Source: an uncultured virus (IMG/VR IMGVR_UViG_3300036770_007242)
Lineage: Duplodnaviria; Heunggongvirae; Uroviricota; Caudoviricetes
IMG/VR virus record: IMGVR_UViG_3300036770_007242
Direction: 5' to 3' (one strand)
Length of the DNA: 64,000 nucleotides
Shown here: positions 9,086 through 52,312 of the stretch, in pieces
Layout of the letters: every line of letters starts with the position of its first letter
How positions within the stretch are numbered: the stretch's first letter is position 1
Position numbers and translations under genes: made by a program
Notes under the pieces: generated by a model
What the model saw: only the letters and a program-made list of their open reading frames with translations
The model's database searches: none
Told to the model about the DNA's origin: nothing

Positions 9086-12000
9086 ATGGCTAAAAAAGAA
9101 AAGAGTTTTTATCAGCGACTGACGAGATTATTTCGCAGCGGTCCAGCAATACGTAGAAAGATTCGTGGTCAGGACTATAAAAACTTCTACGACAATCAAG
9201 TAGTTCAAAACAACCTTGGCTATTATGGTGCTGCTGGATTTAAGCGTGAGGCATCTCCATTTTCTGTTATGGGTGCATACGGTATTCTTGATCGTATGTC
9301 TCGTTATGCTGAGTTTGCAGAAATGGAAAACTGCTTGCATGGTGATACAAAGATTGCTGTGCCGGGAGGATATAAAACTCTTAAGCAGCTCACAGAAGAA
9401 TATGGTCTTGAAAAAGAATTTATTGTTTATTCTTATGACCACAATAAAAAAGCGATTGTTCCAGCAGTAGCTCGTCAAGCAAGACATACAACAACAACAC
9501 ATGCTTATCGTGTGGTTTTTGATAACGGTAAAGAAATCGTTGGAACAGAAGACCATCGTTTAATGAAACGTGATGGTACATATTGCGAGATTCGTGATCT
9601 TAAACCCGGTGATGCAATGATGCCTTTTTATCGCCGTTCATTGGTTGGAAAAGAAACAGGTCCAGAACTTCAAGATAACTGTTATCAGTTAATCTATACT
9701 ATGAACAAAGAAGATAGTCCATCTAGATGGATTGCTGAACATAGATTACTGGGCAAGTTTGTAGCTGGTAGATCGCTAGAGTTAAACGAGGTTGTTCATC
9801 ACAAAAACTTTAAAGCCCATGATAATCGTCTAGAAAACTTGGAAATAATGACCGAAACCGATCATCAAGCTTTACACGCAAAAACATTGAACGGCAAAAA
9901 ATGGGACAAAGAAACTAACCATGATTGGATTGCAAAGTTCAAAGAACGTCATTCCGCATGGATGAAAGAAAATAATCCAGCAGAAAGAAAAGATATCAAG
10001 TTTGAAAGAATACTTCAATGGTGTGATGAAAATAGTTTTAACCTTTATGCAGTTGCAAGAGCTTTCGATACAGATATAAACACTATTAAGAGAAAGTTGA
10101 AGACAAAAGGTTTTGAGAACTTTGTGTCTTTTGCAAAAGCTTATTGTTCTGGTTGGAAACCATATAACGGAGAAAATCAAGGGGCAAACAACAATCGTTA
10201 TCTACACGACTTAACTTTTGAAAAAATCTGCAATGCATATTCAAAAGGTTTAAGCCAACGAAATCTTGCCAAACGTTTAAACGTTTCAGTTATTCCAATA
10301 AATGCAAGACTTAAAGAAAATGGGTTTAATAACTGGAAAGAGTTTGCTTCAACCTATGAAAATCTAAAAGTTGTAAGTGTCGAATATTATGGCGTTACAG
10401 ACTTGTATGATATCACTGTTGACGGCTTTAAAAACTTTGCAACCGATTCTTTAATCGCCCATAACACAGCAGACATTGCGACAGCATTAAACGTTTATGC
10501 CGACGAATCTTGTGCCACAGACGAAAATGGTAGAACCTTTCACATTTACAGCGATGTTCCACAAATCCAACGTGCATTAGAAGAACTGTTTTATGACGTA
10601 ATGAATATCGAGTTTAATGCCAGACGTATGGTTCGTAACCTTGTTAAAAACGGTGACTACTTCATGTATGTTGAAGTTGTACCAGACTACGGTGTTATCA
10701 ACGTAGAACCTTTACCAGTAAACGAAGTAGAACGTGAAGAAGGTTTTGATAAGCATGACCCATATGCTGTTAGATTCCGTCTTATCACAAGAGGCGGCAA
10801 GTATCTAGAAAACTGGCAAATGCTACATTTCCGTATTCTTGGCAACGACTTGTTTCTTCCATATGGTACAAGCTTTCTAGAGTCTGCAAGAAGACCTTGG
10901 AGACAGCTAACCATGATGGAAGACAGCATGTTGGTTTACCGTCTTGTACGCTCTCCAGAACGCAGAGTGTTTTATGTAGACGTATCAGCAGTGCATCCAA
11001 ACGATATTCCAAGCTATATGGAAGCTGTTAAAGAGTCTATGCGTGGAGCAAGTGTTATCGAGCAACAAACAGGTCGTCAAGACTTTAGATATAACCCTCT
11101 TGCTATTGATGAAGATTATTTCTTGCCAACCAGACCAAACAATCAAACCAAGATTGAATCCTTGGCTGGAGGACAAAATGCTACAGCTATCGAAGACGTA
11201 GAATATATTCACAAGAAGCTTATTGCTGCTTTGATGGTACCAAAAGCTTATCTTACCTATGATGAAGCTATTTCTTCTAAAGCAACATTAGCTCAAGAAG
11301 ATATTAGGTTTTCTAGAACAGTTGGTCAGTTGCAAAAGATTTTGATTGCAGAACTAAACAAGCTTGCAATGATTCATCTTTATGCGCTTGGATTTTCGGG
11401 TGATGATTTATTGAACTTTGATTTAAAGTTTTCTAATCCATCAACTGTTGCGGTGCAACAAAAACTAGCTCTTATTTCTAGCAAGCTTGAGATTGCAGCC
11501 AAAGCTTTAGAGTTATCAAAAGAAACTGGCTTGCTAAGTTTTAACTACATTCAAACCGAGATTCTTAGCTTGCGCCCAGAACAAATCAATATAATCAAAC
11601 AAGAAGCTCGGCAAGACCAAGTTACAATGGCAGAGCTTAAAAAGATTGCAGAGAATCCTCCGTTTGATAAAAGCATTGACAGTAATATTGACATCTTTGA
11701 CAAAAGCAACTATGAAGTTCCCACTTCACCATACAGCCCAGACAAAAAAGAAGTTCGTAAGCTTGAACAACAAAATCAAGAACAAGAGCAAGAGTATCAA
11801 GCTCGTCGAGCAAAAGAGCGTGAAGAAAAATCTGGGAACAACAGTGGTGCTCCTATACGCTTTAGTCCAACACCCAACCTAGATAAGAGTTTTAGAAAGT
11901 CTAGAAGAAGCAAAGCGTTTACTGGAGACAGGGCACTTGTTATGCCAGACTTCAAAAAAATGTTGGATATCACAAATAATCGTTATGCAAAAGATCCATT

Positions 12001-12241
12001 CGACACAGAATCAATACGCAAGTTTGTGTTAGAAGAATCCGAGATGGAAAAAAGTCTTTTCAACACGAACGACCGTTTGCCATTTGGTTTGACAAAAGAA
12101 ATGCAAACATCGCTTAGAAAGCTTAACGAAGCATTATATCCCAAGCGTGTTGGTTCCGATGTAGAAGTTGTTAACAATACCAAAGAAGACGAAGTTAACG
12201 ACGAATTATTCCTTATAGAAAAAGAGTTGAAATCAGAATAG
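9086..12241 (+). CDS. T4 gp20-like portal protein with intein
   Basis: RYAEFAEME..ALNVYADE, HFR, PYGTSFLE, MEDSMLVYRLVRSPERRVFYVDV, EDYFLP, LAQEDIRF. Confidence 0.95.
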   Translation: MAKKEKSFYQRLTRLFRSGPAIRRKIRGQDYKNFYDNQVVQNNLGYYGAAGFKREASPFSVMGAYGILDRMSRYAEFAEMENCLHGDTKIAVPGGYKTLKQLTEEYGLEKEFIVYSYDHNKKAIVPAVARQARHTTTTHAYRVVFDNGKEIVGTEDHRLMKRDGTYCEIRDLKPGDAMMPFYRRSLVGKETGPELQDNCYQLIYTMNKEDSPSRWIAEHRLLGKFVAGRSLELNEVVHHKNFKAHDNRLENLEIMTETDHQALHAKTLNGKKWDKETNHDWIAKFKERHSAWMKENNPAERKDIKFERILQWCDENSFNLYAVARAFDTDINTIKRKLKTKGFENFVSFAKAYCSGWKPYNGENQGANNNRYLHDLTFEKICNAYSKGLSQRNLAKRLNVSVIPINARLKENGFNNWKEFASTYENLKVVSVEYYGVTDLYDITVDGFKNFATDSLIAHNTADIATALNVYADESCATDENGRTFHIYSDVPQIQRALEELFYDVMNIEFNARRMVRNLVKNGDYFMYVEVVPDYGVINVEPLPVNEVEREEGFDKHDPYAVRFRLITRGGKYLENWQMLHFRILGNDLFLPYGTSFLESARRPWRQLTMMEDSMLVYRLVRSPERRVFYVDVSAVHPNDIPSYMEAVKESMRGASVIEQQTGRQDFRYNPLAIDEDYFLPTRPNNQTKIESLAGGQNATAIEDVEYIHKKLIAALMVPKAYLTYDEAISSKATLAQEDIRFSRTVGQLQKILIAELNKLAMIHLYALGFSGDDLLNFDLKFSNPSTVAVQQKLALISSKLEIAAKALELSKETGLLSFNYIQTEILSLRPEQINIIKQEARQDQVTMAELKKIAENPPFDKSIDSNIDIFDKSNYEVPTSPYSPDKKEVRKLEQQNQEQEQEYQARRAKEREEKSGNNSGAPIRFSPTPNLDKSFRKSRRSKAFTGDRALVMPDFKKMLDITNNRYAKDPFDTESIRKFVLEESEMEKSLFNTNDRLPFGLTKEMQTSLRKLNEALYPKRVGSDVEVVNNTKEDEVNDELFLIEKELKSE
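9332..10465 (+). mobile_element. 378-aa intein with HNH endonuclease domain, inside portal
   Basis: N-terminal CLHGDT, block B GTEDHRL, HNH core EHRL..VVHHKN...DNRLENL, block F/G YDITV...NF...AHN followed by +1 Thr. Confidence 0.93.
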
Positions 12242-19624: not shown

Positions 19625-20548
19625 ATGGAACTAATCTTTCATGATAAAGGCAATGAAGGTGGTATATACAAGATTCTAAATCTACAAAATGGTAGGATTT
19701 ATATCGGGTCTACATATCGTTTTAAGGATAGAGCAAGGGGACATAAAACTGAACTAGAAGCTGGAAGGCACCTAAATAAGTTTTTGCAAAATGATTATAA
19801 CAAGTGTGGATCTGAGGTTTTCTTATTTGAAGTTATTGAGACTGTGATGGGTGATAGGAAAACCAGAGTCGAGCGAGAGCAGTTTCATATCGATCAATGG
19901 TATGATAATCAAAAGAACTGCTACAACTTAGTTCCATATGCAATGGATAGTCGTGGTGGTTCACGCAATAAGAAACAAATCGATCCATTAACGGATGGAC
20001 GATGTAAACCATTTAATGAGGAGCGTCGTGCAAAACACACAGCCAAGTTAAAAGAAGTGTGGCAAACTCCCGAACTAAAAGAACAATCCAGACAAAATGC
20101 ATATAAGCAATGGCAAGAACAATCTCAGAACAACATAACTGTAACCAACAAAGAGACTGGTGAAAAGGTTGTTATAAGCGGTTCTGTTCGACAGTTTTGT
20201 TTGGATAGAGGATTAAGCTATAAAGCTTTTCATCAGCTAGTAAAAGGCAAACTAAAGAGTTCTGGAGGGTGGTTTGTAGGAGAACAAGAACCAGAATACA
20301 CTAGTAAAAAAGGACAAGTTAGAAAACCTTTAAGTAAAGAGCATAAAGAAAAGATAAGCGGTGGCAAATACGTAGGATTAAAACTTGTTAACCATGAAGG
20401 TTTAGAGATTGTATTAACTTCAAATGTCAAGCAACAATGTAAAGACTTAGGCTTGCCATATTCAACGTTGATCAAGGTTTTAAACGGAAAGTGTAAATCT
20501 GTGTTTGGATATGCTCTAGCAATAGTGACCTCTCTTGATATGGGGTAA
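19625..20548 (+). mobile_element. free-standing GIY-YIG homing endonuclease gene
   Basis: GIYKILN...YIGS, R, E, YN catalytic pattern, NUMOD-like repeats. Last 9 codons resemble the MCP C-terminus. Confidence 0.9.
20519..20548 (+). pseudogene. relic copy of the MCP 3' end
   Basis: AIVTSLDMG versus MCP ATVTCLDMS. GTGACCTCTCTTGATATG versus GTGACCTGCCTCGATATG (15/18). Confidence 0.75.
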
Positions 20549-24565: not shown

Positions 24566-25228
24566 TCAATGTGCTTTAATCAGTCTAGAACGAATTCTTA
24601 AATCATTACCAAACTTTGACATAAGTTCTTCATCATTGTTTAAGTTGTTAACAGCTTTAACGTTTAAAGGGCTATCATCAAAGAACTCGATATGAGGAAT
24701 GTTACGAGATAGCATGGCATCTTTTATCCAGTTGCTTTTAAGTTCTGGAGCAGAGCCATTTAGTGTTATAACCGGAATGTTGATATCAAATGAACTAAGA
24801 AAATCAGATATGTTTTTATTTGCATCATGACCTCTTGCTGTTAGGATAACAGCTGGATATGAGGATTCTTCTCTTAGTTTTGTTACAACATTTCGAAGTA
24901 TGTCAAATGTAAAGTCAATAATCTTTGGATTAACAACTTCTGCAAACTCACGATAATCGTATTTGAATTCTTTTTCTGGGTGTTTTGCTTCCACATCAAC
25001 TTTAAATGTAGCATATTCAGCTGGAGTGATGGCATATTCGTCATCTAGCTGTTCTCCAGAATCTTTATCAAACTCGGTTACCCAAACTCTTGAGTTTGTT
25101 TTTGCTAGTGTATCGTCAAAGTCAAACACACGCAAAGTTTTAGCTCCCGTTCGTTTTGAAACAACTCCCAAATCTTTAAGCTCTTCAACGATTAATATTT
25201 TGAGAGCGTTATATAGAATACGTTTCAT
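24566..25228 (-). CDS. HAD-family phosphatase
   Basis: VFDFDDTL, ILTARG, K, FFDDS..N motifs. Confidence 0.85.
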   Translation of the reverse strand: MKRILYNALKILIVEELKDLGVVSKRTGAKTLRVFDFDDTLAKTNSRVWVTEFDKDSGEQLDDEYAITPAEYATFKVDVEAKHPEKEFKYDYREFAEVVNPKIIDFTFDILRNVVTKLREESSYPAVILTARGHDANKNISDFLSSFDINIPVITLNGSAPELKSNWIKDAMLSRNIPHIEFFDDSPLNVKAVNNLNNDEELMSKFGNDLRIRSRLIKAH

Positions 25229-25252
25229 TGGAAGCTCCGTATTTATAGATAT

Positions 25253-26509
25253 ATGAGCACATTCAATACAACTTTAAAACCTACTTCGTTTGGTTTCTAT
25301 GACAAATACCAACTGTTCCAGCAAGACGCTGACAACATGATTACTTTTGTTCTTAGATTTCTTGGTGAAGATGTTTTATCCGTTGAACTAACAAAACGTC
25401 AAATTTGGGATAACTTTGAACAAGCCACTCGTGAGTTTAACGGAAAAATGATTGAATATCAAAACGTATCCAATCTTTCTAACCTTCTTGGTTCTCCAAC
25501 AGGCAGTATTGATGCTAACGGTAATCCTTCTATTAACGTCACAGATATGTATGTGCAGCCAAACTTAGAGTATCTATTAACTCTAGCCGCACCATACGCA
25601 GGTGTTGTTGGTTATTCTCAAGACGAACAGACATATCTCGGTTATATCACAATGGTTAATACCAAACAAGAATATGACCTTTATACAGACCTTGTTGACA
25701 AAGATGGCACGCCAATATGGAATCTACAACCAAGTGGTTCTGTTGGTTCTATGCAAGTTGTTGAAGTATTCCATAATGCTCCTGTCCAATACGTGTTCAA
25801 CTCTAACCTTGCTAGCAACTTCGTTGCAACAGGGTTACCTGTAGAGTCTTATATTCCAGACACACGCTTTTATGTTCTTCCATTGTTTGAAGACGTATTA
25901 AGAGCAGGCATGTTGGAAGCAGCACAAAGAGTTCGTAGATCACATTATAGCTACAAGATTTCTGGCCGCAGCATAAGAATATATCCAACACCAAACAGTC
26001 TTGTTCCCGGTTACAACAATCGTGTTTGGATTCGTGTTAGATTCTCAAGACAACCTTTTCCAACACTAGCAAGCACTATTGTTAACAGTGGCTCTGCTTA
26101 TTCTCCTGTTGGTTCTGGTTCTGCTGGAGCATATGAACAAGATAAGATTTATGGTGTTAACGGTCCATTCACTGCACCTTTTGGACCATTGAACTATAAC
26201 AGCTTAAATATGTGGTGTAGAAACTGGATTGCACAGATGACTCTTGCTCTTTGCACTATCCAGCTTGGACGTATCAGAAGCAAGTTTAAGAGTATGCCTA
26301 TTCCTGGTGCTGATCTTTCTCTTAACGGCGACGATCTTGTCTCTCAAGGCAAAGAAGACAAAGAAAAGCTTATGACTTCTCTCAAGGAAACTTTGGACAA
26401 CTTGACTTATGACAAAATTGCAGAACGTGAAGCAGCCAAAGCAGAAAATACTGTAAAACAACTTGCTTATATCCCGATGCCACCTAAGTACGCAATTGGT
26501 ATATTTTAG
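25253..26509 (+). CDS. neck protein (T4 gp13-like)
   Basis: LG....VELT..Q near the N-terminus, LG.IRSKF..MPIPG...LNG near the C-terminus, synteny. Confidence 0.8.
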   Translation: MSTFNTTLKPTSFGFYDKYQLFQQDADNMITFVLRFLGEDVLSVELTKRQIWDNFEQATREFNGKMIEYQNVSNLSNLLGSPTGSIDANGNPSINVTDMYVQPNLEYLLTLAAPYAGVVGYSQDEQTYLGYITMVNTKQEYDLYTDLVDKDGTPIWNLQPSGSVGSMQVVEVFHNAPVQYVFNSNLASNFVATGLPVESYIPDTRFYVLPLFEDVLRAGMLEAAQRVRRSHYSYKISGRSIRIYPTPNSLVPGYNNRVWIRVRFSRQPFPTLASTIVNSGSAYSPVGSGSAGAYEQDKIYGVNGPFTAPFGPLNYNSLNMWCRNWIAQMTLALCTIQLGRIRSKFKSMPIPGADLSLNGDDLVSQGKEDKEKLMTSLKETLDNLTYDKIAEREAAKAENTVKQLAYIPMPPKYAIGIF

Positions 26510-26556
26510 TTTGTAAAACGTCCCCTCTCTACTCTATATAACCTCTATTTAACAGC

Positions 26557-27429
26557 ATGACAACAATAGCAACACAACTAGCCACAAAGCTTGTTAATGA
26601 GACTTTAAAAGAACTTTACATTAACGTAGATCATTCTTTTCAAGATATTATTCGTGTGACATATCGTTACAAAGACGAGCCACAAGAAAAAGATGTTAGT
26701 TTGACTTCAGCTATGGAACACGACAGAACCAAACCAGCTGAAGGTGAAAAAATATACGGCGAAGTGTATGCAAAGCTAGCTTCGTCCAGCCCAGACAAAG
26801 CAAAGGGACCATGTAATGATTCATATGTTGTTGAGCTTGCAGTTGTAAATCAACCCGGTGGTGGTTGGGGCAGACTTCTTTACTACATAGCAATGCATTA
26901 TGCTGGTGAAAATGGTTTGATATCAGACAGAGTTCGAAGTTCATCTAATGCCGTTGCAACATGGAACAAACTATGGAATGATTCAGAGATTAAAAAAAAG
27001 CTTCTTGATGATTTTTACGATCCAAAAACTCCAGATGAAAAAGATGATTGCAATCTAGCATCTTCTGGGAAATATTCTACTGAAGATTCCAACAAAGAGA
27101 AAGCAAAGTTTTCAAAGAGTGCTCATAACTGGAATTATTTTTTAGGAGGCCATAGAAAAGAAACCAAAGGCGAATATGAAGAATTAAGTGATCCAAATCC
27201 AGAACGTGCCAAAGAGTATAAAGAACAAAAAGCTAACAAACTGAATTATACATACATTTCTGAGTCTAGAGAAGCAATTAGTATTTTAGCAGATGCTGGA
27301 AGGTTGGCTTATAATGGCAAGTTTTCACCAAAAAAAACAACCACTATCTCTTCTATCAATCGTCCTGCTACTCCAAGACCTATAGAAGAAAACCATGTGT
27401 TTCTTTATGACATCTTGTTTGGAGATTAA
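26557..27429 (+). CDS. hypothetical protein with GNAT-like motif
   Basis: VVELAVV..GGGWGRLLY..SDR..S..A...W. Confidence 0.5.
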   Translation: MTTIATQLATKLVNETLKELYINVDHSFQDIIRVTYRYKDEPQEKDVSLTSAMEHDRTKPAEGEKIYGEVYAKLASSSPDKAKGPCNDSYVVELAVVNQPGGGWGRLLYYIAMHYAGENGLISDRVRSSSNAVATWNKLWNDSEIKKKLLDDFYDPKTPDEKDDCNLASSGKYSTEDSNKEKAKFSKSAHNWNYFLGGHRKETKGEYEELSDPNPERAKEYKEQKANKLNYTYISESREAISILADAGRLAYNGKFSPKKTTTISSINRPATPRPIEENHVFLYDILFGD

Positions 27430-27431
27430 CC

Positions 27432-27521
27432 ATGGCAAGATTATTCATAGGATTGAGAGAAGTCCAGTTTATTAATGATCTTGCAACTTCCAACCTTTGT
27501 GCGATTTGTTTTTGCCGCTGA
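27432..27521 (+). pseudogene. orphaned 5' stub of the gp14-like gene
   Basis: GGAG RBS, then MARLFIGLREVQFINDLA (identical to the first 18 aa of 28525), then an out-of-context tail and TGA. Confidence 0.92.
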
Positions 27522-28359
27522 TTACATTTCTTAGATGAGTGGGATGTAGGGCATGTAGTTTGCAAAAGGCACTGAGACATACAATTTGCCTATATATTTC
27601 GCCAGTATTAGAAACTAGAGGTCTATCAGATAAGTCGTATATTTTGGCATTGTGGTTATCCATTCCGCTACACTTACCTTTTCTATTTTGTTTCATTTTA
27701 TTAATTGACTCTTGTTTGTGTTTCATACCATAAGTTGGGCTAAGTTCTCCTGCTTTACCAAATAAAGGATGTTTGTCTCCTGCCAATAATCCTTTATGAG
27801 ACTCAGAGAGTTTTTTTCTAGTTTCTTCCGAGATAGTATGTCCAGTTTGAATATTCCGAAGTTTTTCTTTAAGGGCTTCTCCTTTTTCGGTTTGGTAAAA
27901 CCTCTTCTTTGATTCACTGATATTAATCTTGTCTTCTTTAGTGAAACTATAGTTCCTACCACCGGTTATGACGTTGCAAACTTTGCTGCCATATATGAGT
28001 TTAAATTCATTTATATGAAACTGCTCTCGCTCGCACAACAACTTACCAATTTCAGCTTCGTTTGTGGCCACTGACGTATCAACAACTTCTACAATAGAAA
28101 ATCTCAAAAAATCGACGTTACCAGTTTCTAGGTAATGTTTCTGCACCGAACGTTTGAGTTTTATGTTTGTCCCTGATTTTCTTTGTTTTTGTATTGGTTT
28201 CAAAAGATCATACTTGTAGTTTAACCATCTCTCTCTTATTGTTCTTCTTGTCTGTCCAATGTAAATCTTGCCGGAAATCGTATTTTCGATTTTATAGATC
28301 ACATTCTTGGTTCTTGAATGTTGTGCGCCCCCATATCTGTAATCAAACTGCCATTCCAT
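27472..28359 (-). mobile_element. free-standing GIY-YIG homing endonuclease gene
   Basis: VIYKIEN...IYIGQT, REQFHI, NUMOD3 HTISEETRKKLSES, terminal KSHKGW. Confidence 0.9.
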
Positions 28360-28524
28360 ATTTCATACCTTTTTTTGGATACCCCTATCTTGGAGTTAAC
28401 AATAGATAGTGTGATTGTTTTGGTTTCATTTAGATGTTTTTTATTCCTGTTGACTCTAAAGCTTTTGATAAAATCCTTATAAACAAGCATTTGGCAAAAT
28501 CTAAAAACGAACATATATATTTTC

Positions 28525-29244
28525 ATGGCAAGATTATTCATAGGATTGAGAGAAGTACAGTTTATCAATGATTTGGCCAAGGAGTTCATAAAGGATGTTG
28601 CAGGCCAAACAATAAACTACTTTCCTGTATCTTCCATTAAAAGTTCAGTTCATAAGATATACAACGAAGCTGTTCAAAAGATTTTTGAGAATCCTATATC
28701 GGTTCCTGCTCTTGTAGGAATGCCAGAGTATTCAAGCAAAACAACAAACTTCGGTCCAGATATTGAAGCTAAGATTGAAGTGTTGATTCAATACAAAGAT
28801 TTACAAGATAAAGGTATTGTGTTAAGCGAAGGTGATTTCTTTTCTTATGACGACATTCTTTATGAAATTTTAACGGTTGTCAATGCTGGAAAAAACATCT
28901 TTGGTTTAGCTGAATACAACACAGCATGGAAAATCACAGCTCGCAGTGCAAGACTTAATCAGCTTGACTTGCCAAACCTTCCAAATCCAAGACTTGCTCC
29001 AGATGACATTCAAACTGTTTTTGAGCAACAGCGTGGTTTACCTTTAACAGATGATGGTAAGCAAACCGGAGATGTTCGTGAAATGAGAGAACGTCTTGGT
29101 CAAGACATGGCTCCTATTGCTCTTGGTACTGGTCAGCGCAAAGTTGAACCAAACGTAGGAGAAGAAGGTGATTTTATTGAGGGCAAAACACCAAGCTTTA
29201 ACAACGATCCATTGCCTGCCAAAAAAGGAATATATGATGAATGA
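28525..29244 (+). CDS. neck/head-closure protein (T4 gp14-like)
   Basis: YF......H.IYNE, FG......, EGDFF...YEI. Lies between gp13-like and tail terminator genes. Confidence 0.75.
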   Translation: MARLFIGLREVQFINDLAKEFIKDVAGQTINYFPVSSIKSSVHKIYNEAVQKIFENPISVPALVGMPEYSSKTTNFGPDIEAKIEVLIQYKDLQDKGIVLSEGDFFSYDDILYEILTVVNAGKNIFGLAEYNTAWKITARSARLNQLDLPNLPNPRLAPDDIQTVFEQQRGLPLTDDGKQTGDVREMRERLGQDMAPIALGTGQRKVEPNVGEEGDFIEGKTPSFNNDPLPAKKGIYDE

Positions 29245-29263
29245 TGTTGTCTAGTTATACAAC

Positions 29264-30472
29264 ATGACAACACGTTTTAATGTTCCTTATTTAGAAGGCA
29301 AAGAACAGTTAGATACTGGTTATGATCTTCAAAACAATGATCCTTCTACATTTTTCATACCTTCTTGCGGTATAGAAGATGTAGACGGAGCAATGCACGC
29401 TTTGTTCGATAAAGATATTCCATTTCAAACATATCAAATCAACACAAGCTATGAAAAAGAAATAAACCTTAAGAAACCTTTTGTGATATTAGCAACAGGT
29501 GAAAGGTTTGCCCTTGCAAAGCGTTTAAAGCCTTTTAGAGACAGGAACGGAGTTCTATTACTCCCAGCTATATCAATTCGTAGAACAACGATTGAACAAG
29601 CTTCTGGTGACACTTTTGTTGGTGAACTAACAATCAAACGTAGACTAGATGAATCTGATAAAGATTATCAGTCATTGATTAATCGCTTGCTTTTAAAGAA
29701 TGTGCCAAATCCTCCAGATACCTTAAGAGGAAACAAAGGTGAAAACGAAAACGATCCATCTATACGTGAAGGAATGCTTTTAGATGACAGAACAAAACGT
29801 CTAAGAGCCGATCACATATATGAGATTATTGCAATACCTTTTCCTCAGTTTTTTACAGTAACATATGAGATTGTGTTTTGGACCAACTACACACAACACA
29901 TGAACTATATTTTAGAAACATTATTGGCTAGTCAAATTGTTCCCGGCAAAGGCTTTTATCTCAAAAGTGATAAAGGCTATTGGTTTTCTGCAACCATGGA
30001 CAACAGCTTAACAGCACAAGATAACTTTGATGATATTACCGATGCTGAAAGATTAATCAAATACACCTGCAACATAAGCGTAAGAGGTTATTTGTTGGCA
30101 CCAAATGCTCCAGGTCAAAGAGTTCCATTCAAGCGTTATCTTTCAAATGTTAATATATCATTTGAAACATATACTGCTGAAGGGAATGTATTGCTGCAAC
30201 CTGAGATTGACAGATATAACGAAACCAAGAACGACTTTACAAAGGAAAATCCTTTTATTTTAACTGATATTGAGCAAGACCCGGCAACCAAACAAAAGCC
30301 AACCGAGCAAGAAAAGCTTATTTTTGAACGAACTTATCGTGATCCAAACAATCAAAACATCAAGCAAACAAAGTATGTGAAACAAATGGCTAACAATCAA
30401 AAGCAAGGTGAGACGGTGTATACCGCTTCTGACCAGCAAGCTTTGTTTGATTTCTTTGCTGATAACAAGTGA
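29264..30472 (+). CDS. tail terminator / sheath stabiliser (gp15-like)
   Basis: LPAISIRR, P.F.TVTYE..FWT....MN.ILE, synteny before sheath. Confidence 0.7.
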   Translation: MTTRFNVPYLEGKEQLDTGYDLQNNDPSTFFIPSCGIEDVDGAMHALFDKDIPFQTYQINTSYEKEINLKKPFVILATGERFALAKRLKPFRDRNGVLLLPAISIRRTTIEQASGDTFVGELTIKRRLDESDKDYQSLINRLLLKNVPNPPDTLRGNKGENENDPSIREGMLLDDRTKRLRADHIYEIIAIPFPQFFTVTYEIVFWTNYTQHMNYILETLLASQIVPGKGFYLKSDKGYWFSATMDNSLTAQDNFDDITDAERLIKYTCNISVRGYLLAPNAPGQRVPFKRYLSNVNISFETYTAEGNVLLQPEIDRYNETKNDFTKENPFILTDIEQDPATKQKPTEQEKLIFERTYRDPNNQNIKQTKYVKQMANNQKQGETVYTASDQQALFDFFADNK

Positions 30473-30543
30473 ACAAAGGGAAACAGGTTTTCTGTATCTA
30501 TTTATGCCGTAGAACTTTCACAACCGTAAAGTGAGGAAACAAT

Positions 30544-33500
30544 ATGCCAGAAACAGTATTAAAAGCACCTAATTATTTTGACCGTGAGTTCGATTTAACC
30601 GAACGCACTATTCCTGTAGGTGGTACTCCTGCAACAGTTATTGGTGGTGCAGAAAAAGGCCCAGCATTCGTACCTGTAACTCTTGGAAGTTACACCGACT
30701 TTGCTAACAAGTTTGGCAACGTAAATCCAAAGTTCGCTGGAACATATGGAGCAAAAGCATTCTTGGATGCAAAAGGAAGTGAACTTGCATCAGTTAACTA
30801 TATTCGTGTTCTTGGATGTGGTGCTAACAGCAGCGAAGCAGATATTTCATCAACAGAAACAGAAGGTACTGTTGTAAATGCTGGCATGAAAGTTGTTGGC
30901 AGTGGTCTTACATTCGTTTCTGGGGCTCTTCAAGGCCGTGTCCAGTTTCTTGTTGGAAAACATTTTGTGCAACCAAACGAAGTGTTTGGCATGCCTGACT
31001 TCACCAACAACTCCAGCTATACTGTAAGCGGTTTTACTCCAGACAACGACACAGTAAATCTTGTTCGTGCAGTATTGTTTACTACTCCAGATTCACGCTT
31101 TCTTGTTCTTAGCGGTGCCGTGGATTCTGGTGGCGTTTACGACAACACATTAGCAGCTTCTGGTGGTGGTACAAACGAGGCCGCTCAAGTAGGCACAGAA
31201 GGACCAATGACCGGTCTATTCAAGCTTATACTGTCATGTTCAGCAGGTTCTACCTTTTCGTCAGATGACGGTTTCGCAGGTCTTAAAATCTTCTCTGCCT
31301 CTTTGGACCCAAGCTCAACACAATATGTTGGTAAAATCCTAAACACAAACCCAGAAGACTTTGCTTCAAAGAAGCATCTTCTTTATCTTGACTATGCTGT
31401 TGACGCAGAAGTTGCAACATTGTCAGCAAGCAACTCTGTTCCAACTGTTGCAGTGCTGTCTGGTTCAAGCAACACAAACACCTCTGGCCACACATTTAGT
31501 GAAGCATTTGGTTATTACAACACACGTTATACAACACCAAAAACACCATACTTTATTTCACAACCTTTTGGTGGAATCGAATACGATCTATTCTATGTAG
31601 AAAGCCGTGATGACGGTGAATATGCCAACAGTAGATACAAGGTAAGCATTTCAAATCTACAAGCTTCAACTAACCCATCTACAAAGTATGGCTCATTCAC
31701 ATTGTCTGTTAGAGTGTTCAATGATACTGATGCAGAGCCACAAATCCTAGAACAATTTAATAACCTTTCTCTTGATCCAAACAGTGCAAACTATGTGGTT
31801 AGAGCAATCGGTGATAAGCGTACTCAGTTTAACTTTGATGCAGTAGATTCAGATGATCGTGGCCTTATTGTTCTTGGCAAGTATGGCAATCGCAGCAGAT
31901 TTATTCGTGTTGTTCCAAGCTCACAACTAGAAAGTGACGAAGTGCCAGAACTAGCTCTTCCATTCGGTTTCCGTGGCCACCAAATGCTTCTTACAAACGT
32001 TGGATTAAACGATCAAGTTGGTACTCTGGCACCCACACTATCACGTATTACAGGTGTTTCTTCCAGTACTGTTGGTGGTGGGGCTCTTCTATCAGGATCA
32101 ATCGTTCCTCCAGTTCCATATCGTTTTACAATCACACGTAACCCACTAACAGCATCAGGAACAACCTTTGGTGCTCCAGGTGCACAAACAGTGCTTGATG
32201 GCCGTCTATATTGGGGAGTTAAATTTGAACGCAACAACAATAACGTTTTAAACGCAAACGTTAATGCTGAGATCAATCCAATCATTGAAAACTTTACAAG
32301 GTTTTCTGGCATTCAAAAACAAGAAGTACTAACCACTGGTTCTGCTTCTGACGTTTTGAATGACAACAAATTCTCTCTTGCAAGAGTTGCTTTGGATGCA
32401 ACTTCAATGGCAACAGTTGCATCAACAGACGTACCAACCCTAATGAAGTCTGCTGCATATCTTCGTAATGCAACAATTGATCCATCAACATATGCTGCAA
32501 CAAACTTTAGCAACCGTTTGACCTTTGCATCTCTACTAAACAGTGGCAGTGCAGTGCAGTTTAACAACTTCTCAAATTATGCTAAGTTTACCACATTCAT
32601 GCAAGGTGGCTGGGATGGTGTAAACATCTTTGACAAGCAAGCAGCTAGATTCACTGACCAATCAACTTCTACAGAAGCTGGTACAGGTGGTGTATATGGC
32701 CTTGCAAATGCAAGCTATGTTTCTCCTGGCGCACCTGCTCTAACAAACTACACAGGTGTTGGATCTGCAAACCAAAACGTTGTTGCATATCGTACAGCAC
32801 TTGATGTTGCAACCAATCCAAGCATTGCAAACAACAATATTCTTCTGGCTCCCGGTCAACGTGATCCACTAGTTACAAACTATGCTCTAGAGAAAAATCT
32901 CTCATACGGTTTGAGCTTCTATCTCCTAGACATTCAACCATATGACAAAGATAGTGTTCGTATCTTTGATGGTGAATCAAACAAATACATTTCTGTTGGC
33001 AAAACCACAAATGCATTTTTGAATCGTTCGCTGGACAACAATGCTGCGGCGGCTTACTTCCCAAACATCGTTATTGATGACACAGTAAACACTCGCCGTG
33101 TACAACTCCCAGCTTCTGTTGCAGCAGTTTCTGCACTAAGCTACAACGACCGTGTTAAGTTCCCATGGTTTGCTCCCGCAGGTTTTGATCGTGGTTCTCT
33201 AAACTTTGTTCTTCTAACATCGATTAGACTCAACCAAACAGATCGTAACACACTTTACGATGCCAACATTAACCCAATCGTGAAGTTCCCCGGTGCCAAC
33301 TATGTGTTCTTCTCACAAAACACATTGCAACAAGCAGAAAGTGCTTTGGAAAGCATCAACGTCAAACGCATGGTTCTAGAAATTAAGCGTCAAATTGTTG
33401 CAATTGGTAACCGCTTGATATTTGAACAAAACACTCCAGCACTTCGTACACGTTTTGTTAGCGAAGCTTCTTTGGTACTTTCAACTGTTCAACTTCAACA

Positions 33501-33660
33501 AGGTATCGAACAGTTTGCAGTAATCTGCGATAATCGCAACAACACAACAGAAGATGTAAACAGCAACCGTATGAATGCACAAATCAGAGTGCTTCCAACA
33601 AGAGCAATCGAATACATTGTCCTGGACTTCGTTGTTCTTCCATCAGGAGTTAGTATCTAG
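30544..33660 (+). CDS. tail sheath protein 1
   Basis: REFD, KGPAFVP, PWFAPAGFDRG, LYDANINPI, INVKR, PTRAIEYI. Confidence 0.93.
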   Translation: MPETVLKAPNYFDREFDLTERTIPVGGTPATVIGGAEKGPAFVPVTLGSYTDFANKFGNVNPKFAGTYGAKAFLDAKGSELASVNYIRVLGCGANSSEADISSTETEGTVVNAGMKVVGSGLTFVSGALQGRVQFLVGKHFVQPNEVFGMPDFTNNSSYTVSGFTPDNDTVNLVRAVLFTTPDSRFLVLSGAVDSGGVYDNTLAASGGGTNEAAQVGTEGPMTGLFKLILSCSAGSTFSSDDGFAGLKIFSASLDPSSTQYVGKILNTNPEDFASKKHLLYLDYAVDAEVATLSASNSVPTVAVLSGSSNTNTSGHTFSEAFGYYNTRYTTPKTPYFISQPFGGIEYDLFYVESRDDGEYANSRYKVSISNLQASTNPSTKYGSFTLSVRVFNDTDAEPQILEQFNNLSLDPNSANYVVRAIGDKRTQFNFDAVDSDDRGLIVLGKYGNRSRFIRVVPSSQLESDEVPELALPFGFRGHQMLLTNVGLNDQVGTLAPTLSRITGVSSSTVGGGALLSGSIVPPVPYRFTITRNPLTASGTTFGAPGAQTVLDGRLYWGVKFERNNNNVLNANVNAEINPIIENFTRFSGIQKQEVLTTGSASDVLNDNKFSLARVALDATSMATVASTDVPTLMKSAAYLRNATIDPSTYAATNFSNRLTFASLLNSGSAVQFNNFSNYAKFTTFMQGGWDGVNIFDKQAARFTDQSTSTEAGTGGVYGLANASYVSPGAPALTNYTGVGSANQNVVAYRTALDVATNPSIANNNILLAPGQRDPLVTNYALEKNLSYGLSFYLLDIQPYDKDSVRIFDGESNKYISVGKTTNAFLNRSLDNNAAAAYFPNIVIDDTVNTRRVQLPASVAAVSALSYNDRVKFPWFAPAGFDRGSLNFVLLTSIRLNQTDRNTLYDANINPIVKFPGANYVFFSQNTLQQAESALESINVKRMVLEIKRQIVAIGNRLIFEQNTPALRTRFVSEASLVLSTVQLQQGIEQFAVICDNRNNTTEDVNSNRMNAQIRVLPTRAIEYIVLDFVVLPSGVSI

Positions 33661-33700
33661 TTTGTAAAACGTTACCTAAATACAGTTAATCAACTGAAAT

Positions 33701-33734
33701 AAAAACTGCTGCTGAAAGGCAGCAGTTTTTTTTT
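33701..33734 (+). terminator. intrinsic terminator
   Basis: AAAAACTGCTGC-TGAAAG-GCAGCAGTTTTTTTTT. Confidence 0.85.
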
Positions 33735-33777
33735 GTTCTTCTATTTATCGTTAACGTTTGATATACGGAGACAAAAC

Positions 33778-36700
33778 ATGGCACTACTAAGCCCCGGCGT
33801 ACTAGCTAGAGAATTTGATATAAGTCAACCAAGAACAGTGTCACCTTCTGGTGTACCTGCCATGGTCATTTCAACAACTGTTAAAGGACCAGCATTTGTA
33901 CCTACCATGGTTACAACACTATCACAATATGTGTCAGTATTTGGTGGAGTAAATGCCAATACACCACTAGGATATCTTTCTGCAAGAGAATGGTTTAGCA
34001 ACACAGGCGTACCACTCATGCAAGTAAGAGTTCTTGGTGCCGGACAAGGCTTAGCACGAAATGCCAACGGCACTGTAACAGATGCAGGTTTTGTTGTTGG
34101 AGCCCAACAGCCCAGTGGAAGTGCTGGTGCTCTTGGTGATAACGTTTTTGCAAATGCAACAGGTGTAACCGGTTCCGTGTATATGCTTGGTTGCTTTATG
34201 AGCGAATCAGTAGATTCAACATATCTTTCTGATGCTGGATTGCAGTCGGACACAACAGCTGTACCAATTGTTCGTGGTGTATTGTTTGCTCCATCAGGAG
34301 TTGTTCTTCGTTTGTCTTCAGCAGCACAAACATCAGATGCTCCAGCTTCAAGTTTTGTTGCAACAGAATCTAGTTTTAATGGTGCATTTACTGGTTCAGT
34401 TGATTTAAGTGCTGGTGGCCAAAGCTTTGTGATGTTGCTTAACGGTCATAAAGGTACAGATACACGCTATCCAAACGTACTCACAGCGAGCTTTGACCCA
34501 CAAGCTGCAAACTACTTCCCCAGCGTATTCAATACCGATCCACTTAAAACACAACAAGCCGGTCACTTGCTATATGCAAACTTTGACATTTATTCTTCCA
34601 TTGCTGTACCAACTGGCTCTGGTGTAATCGTAGCTGACTCTGGTTCTGCATATGGCACAAAACAAAACATTGCATTCCTTGTTCCTTCTTCTGGTTCAGA
34701 TGCAACTCACACATCAAACGTTGGTTCAGCCATTACACCAAACTTTGAAGACTTCCAAGATCGTTATGGACACGCTTTCTCACCTTGGGTTATCTCTCAA
34801 GGATTTGGTGGAGTACCACAAAACCTTTTCCGTTTTCATCACCTTTCAGATGGTGAAGCAAGCAATGGTGATGTAAAAATTTCTATCATCAACATTCAAC
34901 CCGGCACAGGAACACAGCCATATGGTGTGTTCACAGTTCTTGTTAGAGCAATGAATTCATTGGATAGCGATGGTGCTTTGGAAACCTTTACAAACTGCTC
35001 ACTCGATCCAACTTCACCAAACTATATTGCAAGAAAAATCGGTAACTCAAACACATTCTTTAACTTTGATACAGACACAGCTTCTCAAAAAGTAACAACT
35101 GATGGATCATATCCAAACAACTCACGTTATGTTCGTGTTGAAATTGCAGATGCAGTAGACTCTGGTGATATTGATCCATCAGCTGTACCATTCGGATTCC
35201 GTGGACCACAACACCTTGTAACTCAAGGTTCAAGTTCACTCTACAATATCAAGCAAGGTGATTTACTAAACCCAGCTTTCCCATACTACTCAACTGCTGC
35301 TGGTGGTTCTGGTGGTGGTGTACCTCTTTACAAGGCATCACAACCACCTGTACCAATGCGTTTAAACCTTAAGAAGTTAGCTGCATCTTCTGGTGTTGAT
35401 ACAGGTCTTTACTGGGGTGTGCAGTTTCAAAACGTAACAAGCGTTAGCGATCCAAATGGTAGTTCAATCTTCAATCCAAGCTTACTTGGATACAGCAGAT
35501 ACTTCCCAAACCTTGAAGGTTCAACAGACGTACAACCAGCAGTGTTTGATAACAACGGTGCCGCTACCACAACAGCAAACGGTATCATTGACTCTGACTT
35601 GTTTAACAACAATCTTTTCTCTCTAGAGAAAGTCAAGATTGTTACAGGTTCTGGTGATCGTCCAAACACAAGCACAACAGCTCTTCTAAGCTGGAGTTAT
35701 GTACGTGCTGGTGGCATCGCTGCTGACGAAGCAACAAAAACAAGAGCATTGGCTGTTGATGACCTTGTAGAAAATGCAGCTGTACAATCACTTGCCAAGT
35801 TCAGCTTTTATCTAGAACGTGGCTTTGATGGTGTAAGAATCTTTGACCAAGATACACGTTATCTTAAGAATGCAGCCGTTGCTCAAGAAATCACACAAAC
35901 AACCCGTGGACTTACAAACGGGCCAACCGTACAAAGCTACATGAAGAGCATTGGGATTATCTCAGATGTTAACGATGTAAGCATTCAACTTCTAACAATC
36001 CCTGGAATTCGTGTTCGTTATGTAACCGACACAGCAATCAATGCTGTAGAAAATGATCGCTTTGATTGCTTCTACATCATGGACCCAGAACAATATGATG
36101 TTAATGGAACATCTATTACAGGTTCATACGAAACTGTAAACGTTTCACAAACAGCACAAGCATTCGTTGACCGTGGAGTTAACAGCAGCTTTGCAGCAGC
36201 TTACTTCCCAGACGTAAACATTCTTGGACCAACTGGTGTTGTATATGAAAAAATGCCACCATCTGTTGCAGTTCTTGGTGCATATGCTAAGAACGATACA
36301 GTTGGTCAGCCATTCAACGCTCCAGCAGGCTTTACAAGAGGCACACTAACCAACGTAACAGATTTTGCTGTTGCTCTTAACCAAGCCAACTCTGACACCC
36401 TTTACGTGGCAAGACTGAACCTTCTACTTTCCAAGCAAGGTGTTGGTCCAGTTGTGTGGGGTCAAAAGACTCTACTCAACAAAGACAGCTTGCTTAACAG
36501 AGTTAACGTAAGAAGACTTTTGATTGCAATTCGTCGTGATGTACGTCAAGTTGCAACACGCTTCTTGTTCGAGCCAGCACAACAAGCTACACTTTCTGCC
36601 TTTAATGCTGCTGTTCAACCAATCATGGCACGTTATCAAGCAGCTGGTGGTGTAGAAAGATACAGAGTTGTTATTGACTCAACAACCACAACACAAGCAG

Positions 36701-36810
36701 ACCTTGATAACAAAACTCTACGTGGCAAGATTTATCTAATCCCAACCACATCCCTAGAGTTCTTCACAATCGACTTCTTCGTAACCAACCGTGATAGTTT
36801 TGTCGGGTAG
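33778..36810 (+). CDS. tail sheath protein 2 (paralogue)
   Basis: GGAG RBS, then MALLSPGV.AREFD, KGPAFVP, APAGFTRG, VWGQKTL, RVNVRRL. Confidence 0.93.
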   Translation: MALLSPGVLAREFDISQPRTVSPSGVPAMVISTTVKGPAFVPTMVTTLSQYVSVFGGVNANTPLGYLSAREWFSNTGVPLMQVRVLGAGQGLARNANGTVTDAGFVVGAQQPSGSAGALGDNVFANATGVTGSVYMLGCFMSESVDSTYLSDAGLQSDTTAVPIVRGVLFAPSGVVLRLSSAAQTSDAPASSFVATESSFNGAFTGSVDLSAGGQSFVMLLNGHKGTDTRYPNVLTASFDPQAANYFPSVFNTDPLKTQQAGHLLYANFDIYSSIAVPTGSGVIVADSGSAYGTKQNIAFLVPSSGSDATHTSNVGSAITPNFEDFQDRYGHAFSPWVISQGFGGVPQNLFRFHHLSDGEASNGDVKISIINIQPGTGTQPYGVFTVLVRAMNSLDSDGALETFTNCSLDPTSPNYIARKIGNSNTFFNFDTDTASQKVTTDGSYPNNSRYVRVEIADAVDSGDIDPSAVPFGFRGPQHLVTQGSSSLYNIKQGDLLNPAFPYYSTAAGGSGGGVPLYKASQPPVPMRLNLKKLAASSGVDTGLYWGVQFQNVTSVSDPNGSSIFNPSLLGYSRYFPNLEGSTDVQPAVFDNNGAATTTANGIIDSDLFNNNLFSLEKVKIVTGSGDRPNTSTTALLSWSYVRAGGIAADEATKTRALAVDDLVENAAVQSLAKFSFYLERGFDGVRIFDQDTRYLKNAAVAQEITQTTRGLTNGPTVQSYMKSIGIISDVNDVSIQLLTIPGIRVRYVTDTAINAVENDRFDCFYIMDPEQYDVNGTSITGSYETVNVSQTAQAFVDRGVNSSFAAAYFPDVNILGPTGVVYEKMPPSVAVLGAYAKNDTVGQPFNAPAGFTRGTLTNVTDFAVALNQANSDTLYVARLNLLLSKQGVGPVVWGQKTLLNKDSLLNRVNVRRLLIAIRRDVRQVATRFLFEPAQQATLSAFNAAVQPIMARYQAAGGVERYRVVIDSTTTTQADLDNKTLRGKIYLIPTTSLEFFTIDFFVTNRDSFVG

Positions 36811-44798: not shown

Positions 44799-45062
44799 TT
44801 AGATTATTTCTAAGTTTTCTGGTTGTGCTGCTTCGATGATAAAGCGTTGGTGTAGTGGTTCAAAAGTTAGCACTAGAGGAACATGCCAGGCTGGATGTGT
44901 TTCTCTACGCTTGGATTCGTTAATTGCATTTTGAAATGCAATTTGCATAAAGTGTTGAATGCGTGGAGTTAGTGGTTCTCCCAAAAACGTTTCATTTAAT
45001 ACGTTGTTATAGTAATCAATGATTTTATACCAATAGTTTCTTTGAACCTGAATTTTGCTCAT
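44799..45062 (-). CDS. hypothetical protein
   Basis: 87 aa coupled to purA. Confidence 0.65.
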   Translation of the reverse strand: MSKIQVQRNYWYKIIDYYNNVLNETFLGEPLTPRIQHFMQIAFQNAINESKRRETHPAWHVPLVLTFEPLHQRFIIEAAQPENLEII

Positions 45063-46183
45063 AACACAATCATATCCTCTCTTTCTGGAGATGTTGAGAT
45101 ATAAGTAACTGGAGCCATGGCAACTGCTGCAATATGTTGTATATAATTCAATGCATCCTGTGGCAACAATGTTTTATCACGCAAACCTTTTGTTGGACGA
45201 TTCCAGCCATTCCAATCACAATAAACAATCTCTTCACGGCTATTTTGAAAACCTCTATAACCTACAGGAATCATCTTAAATTCATCTAGTACATCTAGCT
45301 TGGTAATCACAACTTCATCAACTCCATTAAGTTCGCATGCTCGACGTAGATCATTATAATCTAGCCAACCACAACGACGGTTTCTTCCTGTTGTTGTGCC
45401 ATATTCTCCACCTACTTCACGAAGCTTATCACCAATCTCATTCTTCTGTTCTGTTGGAAATGGTCCCTCTCCAACCCGTGTTGTATATGCCTTAACAACA
45501 CCAATAACCTTACGTAGAGATTTATGGTTTAATCCTGTTCCTGTAAGTGCTCCACCAATAGTACAGTTGGAACTTGTGACATATGGATACGTGCCATGAT
45601 CAATATCAAGAAGAGTGCCTTGTGCACCCTCTAGAAGAATATTAGCGCCGCTTTTAACAGCCATTTGCAGTAAGCTAGTAGTGTCAGATACAAAAGGCTT
45701 AATAACGTCTAGAGTGCCTTCTGGATATAGAGAATCCAACTCACCTTTTGCAAGGTTTTCCATACGCAACCCTGTGCGATGCATTTTAGCTGCATATGTG
45801 GGACCAATACCTCGTCCAGTTGTTCCTACCTTTTTACCTGTTGCTTGATCTTCTGTGCGAGCCGTAGGAAGAATAACGTGAGCAGCATGAGAAATAAACA
45901 AACGACCAACAAGACTCGACGCACCTACTTGATTGATTTCTTTAGCAAGTTGTTCTGGATCAATCACACAACCATTCCCAATAACGTTGTTGACATGTGG
46001 ATGGAGAACTCCAGAAGGAAGAGCATGAACAGCAATACGGTGTCCATTTACCACAAGCGTATGTCCTGCGTTGTTACCTCCATGAAACCTTACAACATAT
46101 TCGTAGTTTTTGGCAAGATAGTCAACAACCTTGCCTTTCCCTTCGTCCCCGTAGGATAGCCCTAACACTACATCAGCTGGCAT
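45059..46183 (-). CDS. purA: adenylosuccinate synthetase
   Basis: GDEGKGK, GGNNAGHT, GTTGRGIGP, EGAQG..LD..HGTYPYVTSS, TRVG.GPFPTE, GTTTGR.RRCGW, TKLDVL. AGGAGA RBS before ATG 46183. Confidence 0.95.
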   Translation of the reverse strand: MPADVVLGLSYGDEGKGKVVDYLAKNYEYVVRFHGGNNAGHTLVVNGHRIAVHALPSGVLHPHVNNVIGNGCVIDPEQLAKEINQVGASSLVGRLFISHAAHVILPTARTEDQATGKKVGTTGRGIGPTYAAKMHRTGLRMENLAKGELDSLYPEGTLDVIKPFVSDTTSLLQMAVKSGANILLEGAQGTLLDIDHGTYPYVTSSNCTIGGALTGTGLNHKSLRKVIGVVKAYTTRVGEGPFPTEQKNEIGDKLREVGGEYGTTTGRNRRCGWLDYNDLRRACELNGVDEVVITKLDVLDEFKMIPVGYRGFQNSREEIVYCDWNGWNRPTKGLRDKTLLPQDALNYIQHIAAVAMAPVTYISTSPEREDMIVL

Positions 46184-46288
46184 AATATATTCTCCTTGTA
46201 TAAACACGTTAACACAAGATTAGGTAAAGATAAAAGGATTATATGTGGTGTGGAAGATAACCAAGAGAAGGAAGCGATACTTAATGTT

Positions 46289-51309: not shown

Positions 51310-51378
51310 ATGAACAAGTTTACGAATGATACCAAAGGACTTTCAACAGTTTATTCCTCTAGCGTCCAACCTTTGTAA
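51310..51378 (+). pseudogene. orphaned 5' stub of Flp pilin gene
   Basis: TACTTA + GGAGG + MNKFTNDTKGLSTV, then an out-of-context tail and TAA. Confidence 0.85.
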
Positions 51379-52247
51379 GTTTTTATTATTCCAGACAAAA
51401 GTCTATAGAAACTACTTCTTTCTAAATTGTTTTCTATCATAAATCTTACAAGATTTATTCCTTCTACTTCTATTCGTTTGTGGTCGGAAACGAAAACAAA
51501 TACTTTGTCACCATAACGCTTTCTTGCTTTTGTTTCGCTTATTTTTTGTTTCTGGCCATCAGACATAGTTTTACCAAAGTTTGGATTTTTTTCACCTAAC
51601 CTGGAGAAACTCATCTTTTCTTTCGTAGTAGCGTTTGCTTTTTTCCCAATCCTAGATTGACGTAATTTTTCCTTAGTTTCTTCCGATATATTTTTTTTGG
51701 CTTCAACAAGTTTTTGTATATGTTCTGGTGTTTTAGGTTTCCTTAGTTTTTCTTTTGCTTCTTCTGACATTGGCACACCAATATGGGCGGCACGTATCTT
51801 TTCTTTTGTTTCTTCTGTTCTGGGCACACCTACTCTTGCAGCAATTGAGGCTTTTGTTGCCTTGGACATATCTTTGCCTTTACGCTGTTTGCTCCATAAA
51901 GCTTTTGTTTCATCAGATGGTTTAAAACCAAGGGTATTACCAGCCTTCTCGCAAATATTATAGCATTGTTTTTTGCCATCAAAAAACTTCTCTAGATAAT
52001 ATTGCTCTCTAACCAATAACTGTTTTTTATCAACCATCTCAATAATTTCATAAGTTAACGGTTCCTGCCCATATTCTTTTTTGCAAGAGTTATAATCATT
52101 TTGCAAATATTGATTTGGATGACGATTATGGAACAAATCAGATTGATGAGCTGCCCATCGCTTCATAAAGTCAATGGTACTTCCTATGTATATACGACCA
52201 TTGAACTTATTTGTTATCTTATAGATGCCAGATTTTTTCATGTTCAT
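51351..52247 (-). mobile_element. free-standing GIY-YIG homing endonuclease gene
   Basis: SGIYKITN...IYIGS, REQYY, YN, several NUMOD3 EETKEK repeats, terminal YKGW. Confidence 0.92.
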
Positions 52248-52312
52248 GTGTTATATATAGTTGTTCTTTGCAGTTGTTGCATAGAAATACACTAAAAAAA
52301 AGGAGTTCTAAG

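Follow-up and report, generated by a model that had tools for sequence, protein, structure and literature searches.

According to the compared parts of PMC2988022, the free-standing endonucleases of phage T4 cut far from their own genes and may carry promoters for downstream genes, or they split genes. In fungal mitochondria, the portions of the literature compared here describe a free GIY-YIG gene that was duplicated together with the N-terminus of atp9. The comparison covers parts of PMC2988022, PMC10448857, PMC13096335, PMC7487136, PMC3630166, PMC13565253, and PMC12724721. Here we describe a locus in a 64,000-nt stretch of DNA from an uncultured caudovirus (the window), at which the start of a phage neck gene stands on both sides of an inverted GIY-YIG gene. 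The nuclease resembles the Seg proteins of T4 in belonging to the same nuclease family, in being intronless, and in the co-conversion of flanking genes, and its antisense position among late genes resembles that of segD (PMC2988022, in part). However, the cut sites of the Seg proteins, in the same partial account, are hundreds to thousands of bases away, whereas this nuclease gene lies inside its inferred target. All parts of the cassette are already known. Our reading, which we consider probable, is that the 1,093-bp cassette homes into codon 16/17 of the neck gene and that the start of the recipient gene serves as the left homology arm.

The locus begins with a 290-aa ORF (26557-27429). Its last codons contain the GGAG Shine-Dalgarno (SD) sequence of the original neck start (27421-27424, plus strand). 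The stub, comprising neck codons 1-16 (27432-27479, plus strand), follows and continues into a 29-aa ORF that ends at 27521. The gene for the free-standing GIY-YIG/NUMOD3 endonuclease (27472-28359, minus strand, 295 aa, ending KGWKLQDH*) has its stop codon (27472-27474) within the stub. A 165-nt spacer (28360-28524) separates the divergent starts of the nuclease and the working neck gene (28525-29244, plus strand, 239 aa), whose first 16 codons constitute the replacement start. The hexamer TATATA (28514-28519, plus strand), a predicted late promoter, is followed by 5 nt and then by the working ATG, with no SD sequence.

The peptide MARLFIGLREVQFINDLA is encoded twice, by 54 nt at 27432-27485 and at 28525-28578. 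Direct comparison confirmed the preliminary description of this repeat: the leading 32 nt are identical, and the five differences (27464, 27473, 27480, 27482, and 27485) are all synonymous in the neck frame. The longest exact repeat in the region 25000-31000 is 33 nt, whereas none of 200 triplet shuffles produced one longer than 17 nt. The real duplication is about 48-49 nt, that is, 16 codons, with two differences. Reading the minus strand, the stop codon of the nuclease is preceded by His (27475-27477), Asp (27478-27480), Gln (27481-27483), and Leu (27484-27486). Since the Gln and Leu codons read backwards occupy 27481-27486, the match at neck codons 17-18 is largely nuclease sequence. Nucleases of this family normally terminate in KGW-x-L, including paralogs far from any neck sequence; moreover, the related contig L023 has the same Leu-Gln codons, yet its junction lies about six codons earlier. 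Thus, positions 27482 and 27485 belong to the nuclease gene, the assignment of 27480 is ambiguous, and the left junction of the cassette lies at 27480-27486. The clustering of differences toward the junction, suggested earlier, arises from extending the alignment beyond the end of the duplication. Likewise, the nuclease end LQDH* had been described as the antisense of the stub; this holds for Asp, His, and the stop (stub codons 14-17), whereas Gln and Leu are the nuclease's own codons. The description of the recoding as purely synonymous is correct for the two neck copies in the window, but in L021 (L8Q, V11I) and in a second cassette of the window the two starts differ at the protein level.

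The source contig, 78 kb long, derives from a large myophage and includes portal, capsid, two sheath, and tube genes; its relatives sit on contigs of 241-305 kb. The 239-aa protein has no Pfam or PHROG match, none of its 61 homologs matches PF11649 or a PHROG, and PDB sequence searches with neck profiles yielded nothing meaningful. A structural model from the 61-sequence alignment reached pLDDT 69, compared with 32 from 13 sequences. The best PDB match of the model is the T4 portal-neck-tail complex (E=1.3e-7), its BFVD matches are neck or head-closure proteins, and PF11649 occurs in 11% of the members of its ESM Atlas neighbour cluster. The gene is placed between the head-tail adaptor and tail sheath genes. 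Because the model matches neck and head-closure proteins, the label "neck gene" holds, and the predicted fold is that of a T4 gp14-like head-closure protein. The next gene (29264-30472) may be called gp15-like, a label taken from position only.

Several other features of this region and of the window were observed. The neck start is apparently ATT or ATA behind a good SD sequence in 10 of 113 distinct alleles, a recurrent non-canonical start noted in L003-L005, L012-L014, L048, L064, L070, L073, L077, and L086; read by eye, the stretch between the preceding stop and the L013 neck start contains no ATG, GTG, or TTG in frame. The adaptor-neck junction is an insertion hot spot, at which forward GIY-YIG genes of distant relationship (24-28% identity), as well as other inserts, are present without a stub (L004-L007, L048, L049, L055, L057, L058, L078, L083, and L120). 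In L081 (1832-1854) and L082, a different 23-nt neck-start stub lies between two paralogous non-nuclease ORFs, and the working neck gene has a TATTTA leaderless-type start, resembling a scar without an adjacent nuclease. In L127 (80-576), an inverted non-nuclease ORF lies upstream of a neck gene with a TACTTA leaderless-type start and no stub. The window also contains a portal gene with an intein carrying an HNH domain (9086-12241) and a third GIY-YIG gene, forward, immediately after the major capsid gene (19625-20548). Other genes of the window are two GroEL-like genes, a PurZ-like gene (phrog_1211), PhoH, and two tandem tail-sheath genes (4038-5801, 58338-59708, 45059-46207, 60598-62001, and 30544-36810 for this set). 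The PurZ-like gene suggests 2-aminoadenine DNA, and such a modified genome could affect cleavage assays.

The nuclease matches NUMOD3 above the Pfam cut-off (residues 173-202, E=3.3e-5) and GIY-YIG (PF01541) below it (E=4.9e-4, 20.8 bits against 22.6). It is similar to phrog_314 (E=2.4e-24) and to the catalytic domain of I-TevI (PDB 1mk0 and 1ln0, E=0.0025), and its residues VIY (20-22), YIG (33-35), and R44 align with those of I-TevI, so that both the GIY...YIG motif and the catalytic arginine are present. NUMOD3 and the KGW-x-L end common to paralogs form a separate C-terminal DNA-binding region. The protein thus appears to be a member of the GIY-YIG homing endonuclease family, for which site-specific cleavage is predicted. 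A metagenome scan with the nuclease alignment gave no match. The 35 nt just 5' of the nuclease start (28371-28405) are letter-identical in the adaptor-neck intergenic region of the nuclease-free L013 and L014, which may be a relic of a stub-less ancestor or the result of a later exchange.

The stub had been described as the SD-led original start and the working copy as leaderless, and the motif statistics bear this out at the level of sequence. The most enriched promoter-like hexamers upstream of 77 contig ORFs are TACTTA (19 times) and TATTTA (13 times). A motif TA[N][T/A]TA located 4-8 nt before the ATG is found in 8 of 77 contig ORFs and in none of the 45 SD-led ones (Fisher p=5e-4, for promoter and SD patterns picked after the sequences had been viewed). 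Neighbouring ORFs at 25253, 26557, and 29264 are among those led by the motif, and equivalents are observed in L021, L023, and L109. Among 26 distinct neck starts of at least 65% identity, the motif without an SD sequence is present in three of three with the inverted nuclease, and the motif in 1 of 23 without it; these counts omit the nuclease-oriented loci L020-L024 and L104-L109, with L021-L023 entering as L041, L042, and L047 and L109 uncounted. An SD sequence is carried by 18 of the 23 close nuclease-free starts, under a pattern broader than that used in the contig-ORF survey, and the stubs of L021 and L023 retain SD sequences like those of nuclease-free alleles. Since 9 of 87 more distant neck starts have the motif, this type of start is native to the phage family. 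The motif is a putative late promoter. A scan for sigma-70 promoters yielded 7 candidate sites, compared with 9.4 expected, and none of these belongs to the nuclease or the working start. The arrangement is similar to that of T4 segG and gene 32, where the adjoining essential gene obtains a promoter from the inserted segment (PMC2988022, in the part compared).

The layout recurs in at least three diverged phage lineages. The IMG/VR contigs L001, L021/L022, and L023 contain the same stub, inverted nuclease, and full neck gene, with neck identities of 99, 78, and 76% and nuclease identities of 100, 76, and 72%, respectively, next to three different upstream neighbours. In L002 and L109 the inverted nuclease also precedes the neck gene, and these contigs stop short of any stub. 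The nuclease domains of L021 and L023 differ from that of the window. The L023 nuclease contains an in-frame stop at about codon 243, in the C-terminal domain, and its stub is shorter (about 10 codons); this may be a degenerating copy or a sequence error.

Mobility of the cassette is supported by a recombinant. L002 has the nuclease N-terminus (89 aa, 100% identical), spacer, and neck gene of the window lineage: its neck gene is 97.4% identical to that of the window phage and 82.1% to that of L011, whereas its next gene is 80.3% identical to the former and 92.4% to the latter. This discordance, observed in one assembly only, indicates co-conversion of neighbouring genes. If so, the cassette carries entire structural genes across phage lineages that have diverged by about 20%. 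A second trace is provided by the nuclease-free L013. It differs from its sister L014 at 14 positions of the neck gene, six of which fall within nt 48-63, where L013 is identical to the working copy; across nt 43-77 it has no mismatch to the working copy, compared with 3-8 mismatches in the other 10 alleles (clustering P ~1e-4). This patch, beginning at the junction, fits repair from a donor working copy or excision after homing, and both readings would put the break near codons 15-26. As L002 and L013 each come from a single metagenomic assembly, either could be a chimera.

The strain data bear on the origin of the stub. The stretch is present in twenty runs from 8 studies, three of these runs being flagged as a possible source; 8 of 24 listed runs, all of them unflagged, were examined as contigs. 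With a near-identical nuclease (few bases differ), three stub haplotypes are observed across strains. The first is that of the window and run X16; the second, with five changes, is found in L001; the third, in runs X4, X5, X6, X7, X13, and X19 (five studies), has changes at 27452, 27455, 27458, 27464, and 27473. Run X7 seems to contain more than one haplotype, and run X15 is uninformative; in the latter the nuclease is uncovered, but with only about 71% of the run read it was not counted as an empty allele. Codon 14 of the third haplotype is that of the working copy, and the working base at 27473 occurs in the stub of six of the eight runs. All seven variable stub sites are third-position and synonymous, although only 27 of the 144 possible single changes are synonymous; thus, the stubs are sampled from working alleles rather than decaying. 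In agreement, the L001 stub is identical to the nuclease-free L012 across nt 13-48 (36/36), the L023 stub is identical to the nuclease-free L044 at 30/30 nt with the same SD sequence, and the L021 stub is preceded by an intergenic region like that of the nuclease-free L011. At the same time, the working start shows zero differences in L001, L002, and the nuclease-linked contigs listed. The window stub can be derived from that of L001 by replacing its first 32 nt with those of the working copy, a sign that stub and working copy may have recombined. The stub is therefore likely to be the recipient's own start and the left homology arm.

These observations can be combined into the following scenario. 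The cassette is made up of the inverted GIY-YIG gene, the predicted late promoter, and neck codons 1-16 in a second copy; it lies after neck codon 16 and probably spreads by homing, with no splicing. In a mixed infection, the enzyme would cut nuclease-free neck alleles at or just 3' of codon 16, in a zone of about neck nt 43-77. Of the two ends so produced, the left one, carrying the recipient's first codons, would pair with the donor stub, and the right one with the donor working gene. The SD-led start of the recipient would turn into the new stub, and the neck gene would then be transcribed from the cassette promoter into a leaderless mRNA. With the gene start itself acting as the left arm, the cassette would need no homology in the highly variable upstream region. 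As to origin, a nuclease gene that lay directly 5' of the neck gene may have been copied into a break under repair and fused illegitimately with the broken start of the neck gene, so that the antisense strand of the host gene came to provide the last codons and the stop of the nuclease. Against homing, ordinary recombination of co-infecting phages could refresh the stub without nuclease action, and the working start of L023, the imported-looking stub of L021, the internal stop in the L023 nuclease, and the sub-threshold GIY-YIG Pfam score count against it.

Some of the same data could be explained by an ordinary free-standing nuclease upstream of the neck gene that carries with it a dead relic of sloppy repair, the working start being the phage's own. 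Indeed, the L023 working start matches the nuclease-free L121 at 71 of 72 nt. In L021, stub codons 8-16 are closer to the window lineage than to L021's own working copy, and the 3' half of the nuclease is likewise close to the window lineage (88-95% DNA identity per 90-nt block, compared with 51-69% in the 5' half), whereas the L021 working start is not. On a longer time scale, the stub is thus partly mobile, and a resident working start can be retained. However, a dead relic should change at all codon positions, in contrast to the synonymous variation at all seven sites; the stubs match living alleles, SD sequence included; the working start is invariant while the stub varies; and the working start of L002 arrived with the nuclease. 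We consider this explanation unlikely. Within the homing scenario, a crossover point that varies within the stub would reconcile both patterns, the 5' part of the stub being the recipient's and the 3' part the donor's.

The preliminary description had proposed instead that the working copy was synonymously changed at five sites and that these define the recognition sequence. In its favour, none of the five differences alters the neck protein, rare working-copy bases do exist, and intronless homing depends on the donor's version of the target gene carrying substitutions (PMC13565253, in the part compared). However, 27482 and 27485 are nuclease codons, 27480 is at the junction, and 27464 and 27473 both vary among strains with the same nuclease, their working bases being found in nuclease-free alleles as well. 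The view that the five differences mark a recognition site is thus not supported and appears highly improbable. Two other positions hold bases peculiar to the working copy: among 11 close nuclease-free alleles, the base at 28548 is absent and that at 28576 is found once, in L013. The working copy likely escapes cutting via natural polymorphisms, these two being the candidates. The change at 28576 converts Thr18 to Ala. Alanine is found here in 2 of 23 nuclease-free alleles; since the L021 and L023 working copies keep Thr18, it is not a general protector. As the stub varies up to nt 42, the cut is probably at or downstream of the junction, and the indirect signs (stub variation and the L013 patch) would place it within about 30 nt of the junction. 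The candidate target zone, neck nt 43-77 (28567-28601, plus strand), where a nuclease-free relative is identical to the working copy, includes Ala18, with Thr in most alleles. CNNNG is an I-TevI-like motif; inspection by eye around codon 18 revealed no discriminating site of this type.

Another explanation is that the stub is kept for use, either as a 29-aa peptide or because read-through RNA silences the nuclease late in infection. The SD sequence and frame are kept in all lineages with synonymous variation only, and no terminator-like site was found on the plus strand of 26500-29500. On the other hand, sampling from working alleles accounts for the synonymous pattern, the stub length differs (about 10 codons in L023), and the tail of the peptide is set by the antisense strand of the nuclease. 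We therefore give a useful stub a very small probability, while antisense read-through, as well as excision of the cassette, is possible. No stub-to-working-copy joint indicative of excision was found in the contigs of 8 of the 24 runs; as contigs drop rare variants, this is no evidence either way.

Finally, a self-splicing intron or an assembly artefact is extremely improbable: de Bruijn contigs of runs X7 and X16 are indeed interrupted by the 33-nt exact repeat, but a single contig of run X6, from another study, contains 27330-28760, four other contigs have the same layout, two overlapping contigs of run X4 bridge both junctions, no Rfam match at E<=1 was found in 26400-29400, and the antisense nuclease ORF, with no ribozyme core, intron, or intein around it, leaves only 165 nt of non-coding insert. 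The artefact that could have explained the repeat is thus refuted.

A second cassette of the same design is observed in the window at 51310-52477 and also in L190. It contains a 13-codon, SD-led stub and an inverted GIY-YIG gene (51351-52247, 298 aa) with its stop at the junction and a leaderless-type start. A complete 54-aa gene with its own SD sequence follows, which is Flp-pilin-like (PF04964, E=3.9e-5, below the cut-off). Although two of 200 shuffles also reached the 15 nt of its exact core, the core keeps the same register in both copies, counted from the ATG. L190 has the same layout, with a nuclease 75% identical.

With two independent examples here, one may tentatively ask whether start-replacing cassettes form a third general route, beside introns and inteins, for homing endonucleases to persist within essential phage genes, with the stub as a renewable homology arm that makes upstream synteny dispensable, rewiring from SD-led to leaderless late expression, and antisense silencing of the nuclease; we regard this generalization as rather doubtful. 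The locus itself shows how an intron-less nuclease can occupy its own probable target gene at little cost. For annotators, short duplicated gene starts near nuclease genes would represent samples of alleles and are no evidence of recoding. Through the strain data, a curious arrangement becomes a mechanism that can be tested, with a candidate target of 35 nt.

In the literature compared, a scope of main texts with few subscription journals, no phage gene with a replaced start was described. The closest phage examples, in the compared part of PMC2988022, are mobE in nrdA of Aeh1 and mobA in gene 60 of T4, which are also intron-less endonuclease genes inside an essential phage gene; there the protein is split into two reassembling chains, whereas the neck gene is restarted whole. 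Like I-TevI, the nuclease combines a GIY-YIG catalytic domain with a long C-terminal DNA-binding region. However, I-TevI is intron-encoded and cuts 23-25 nt upstream of the insertion (PMC2988022, in the same part), whereas here the inferred cut is at or downstream of the junction. As in the fungal mitochondrial endonuclease elements of the partly compared literature, insertion brings a foreign gene end, the gene survives, and the native end becomes a relic. The fungal elements mostly affect the 3' end and are co-transcribed, in contrast to this phage locus, where the cassette replaces the 5' end, carries its nuclease gene in inverted orientation, and has to supply a promoter and a start. Thus, the cassette appears to work like the fungal end-replacing endonuclease ORFs but is not classed with them, because it is the N-terminus that is replaced and the nuclease lies on the opposite strand.
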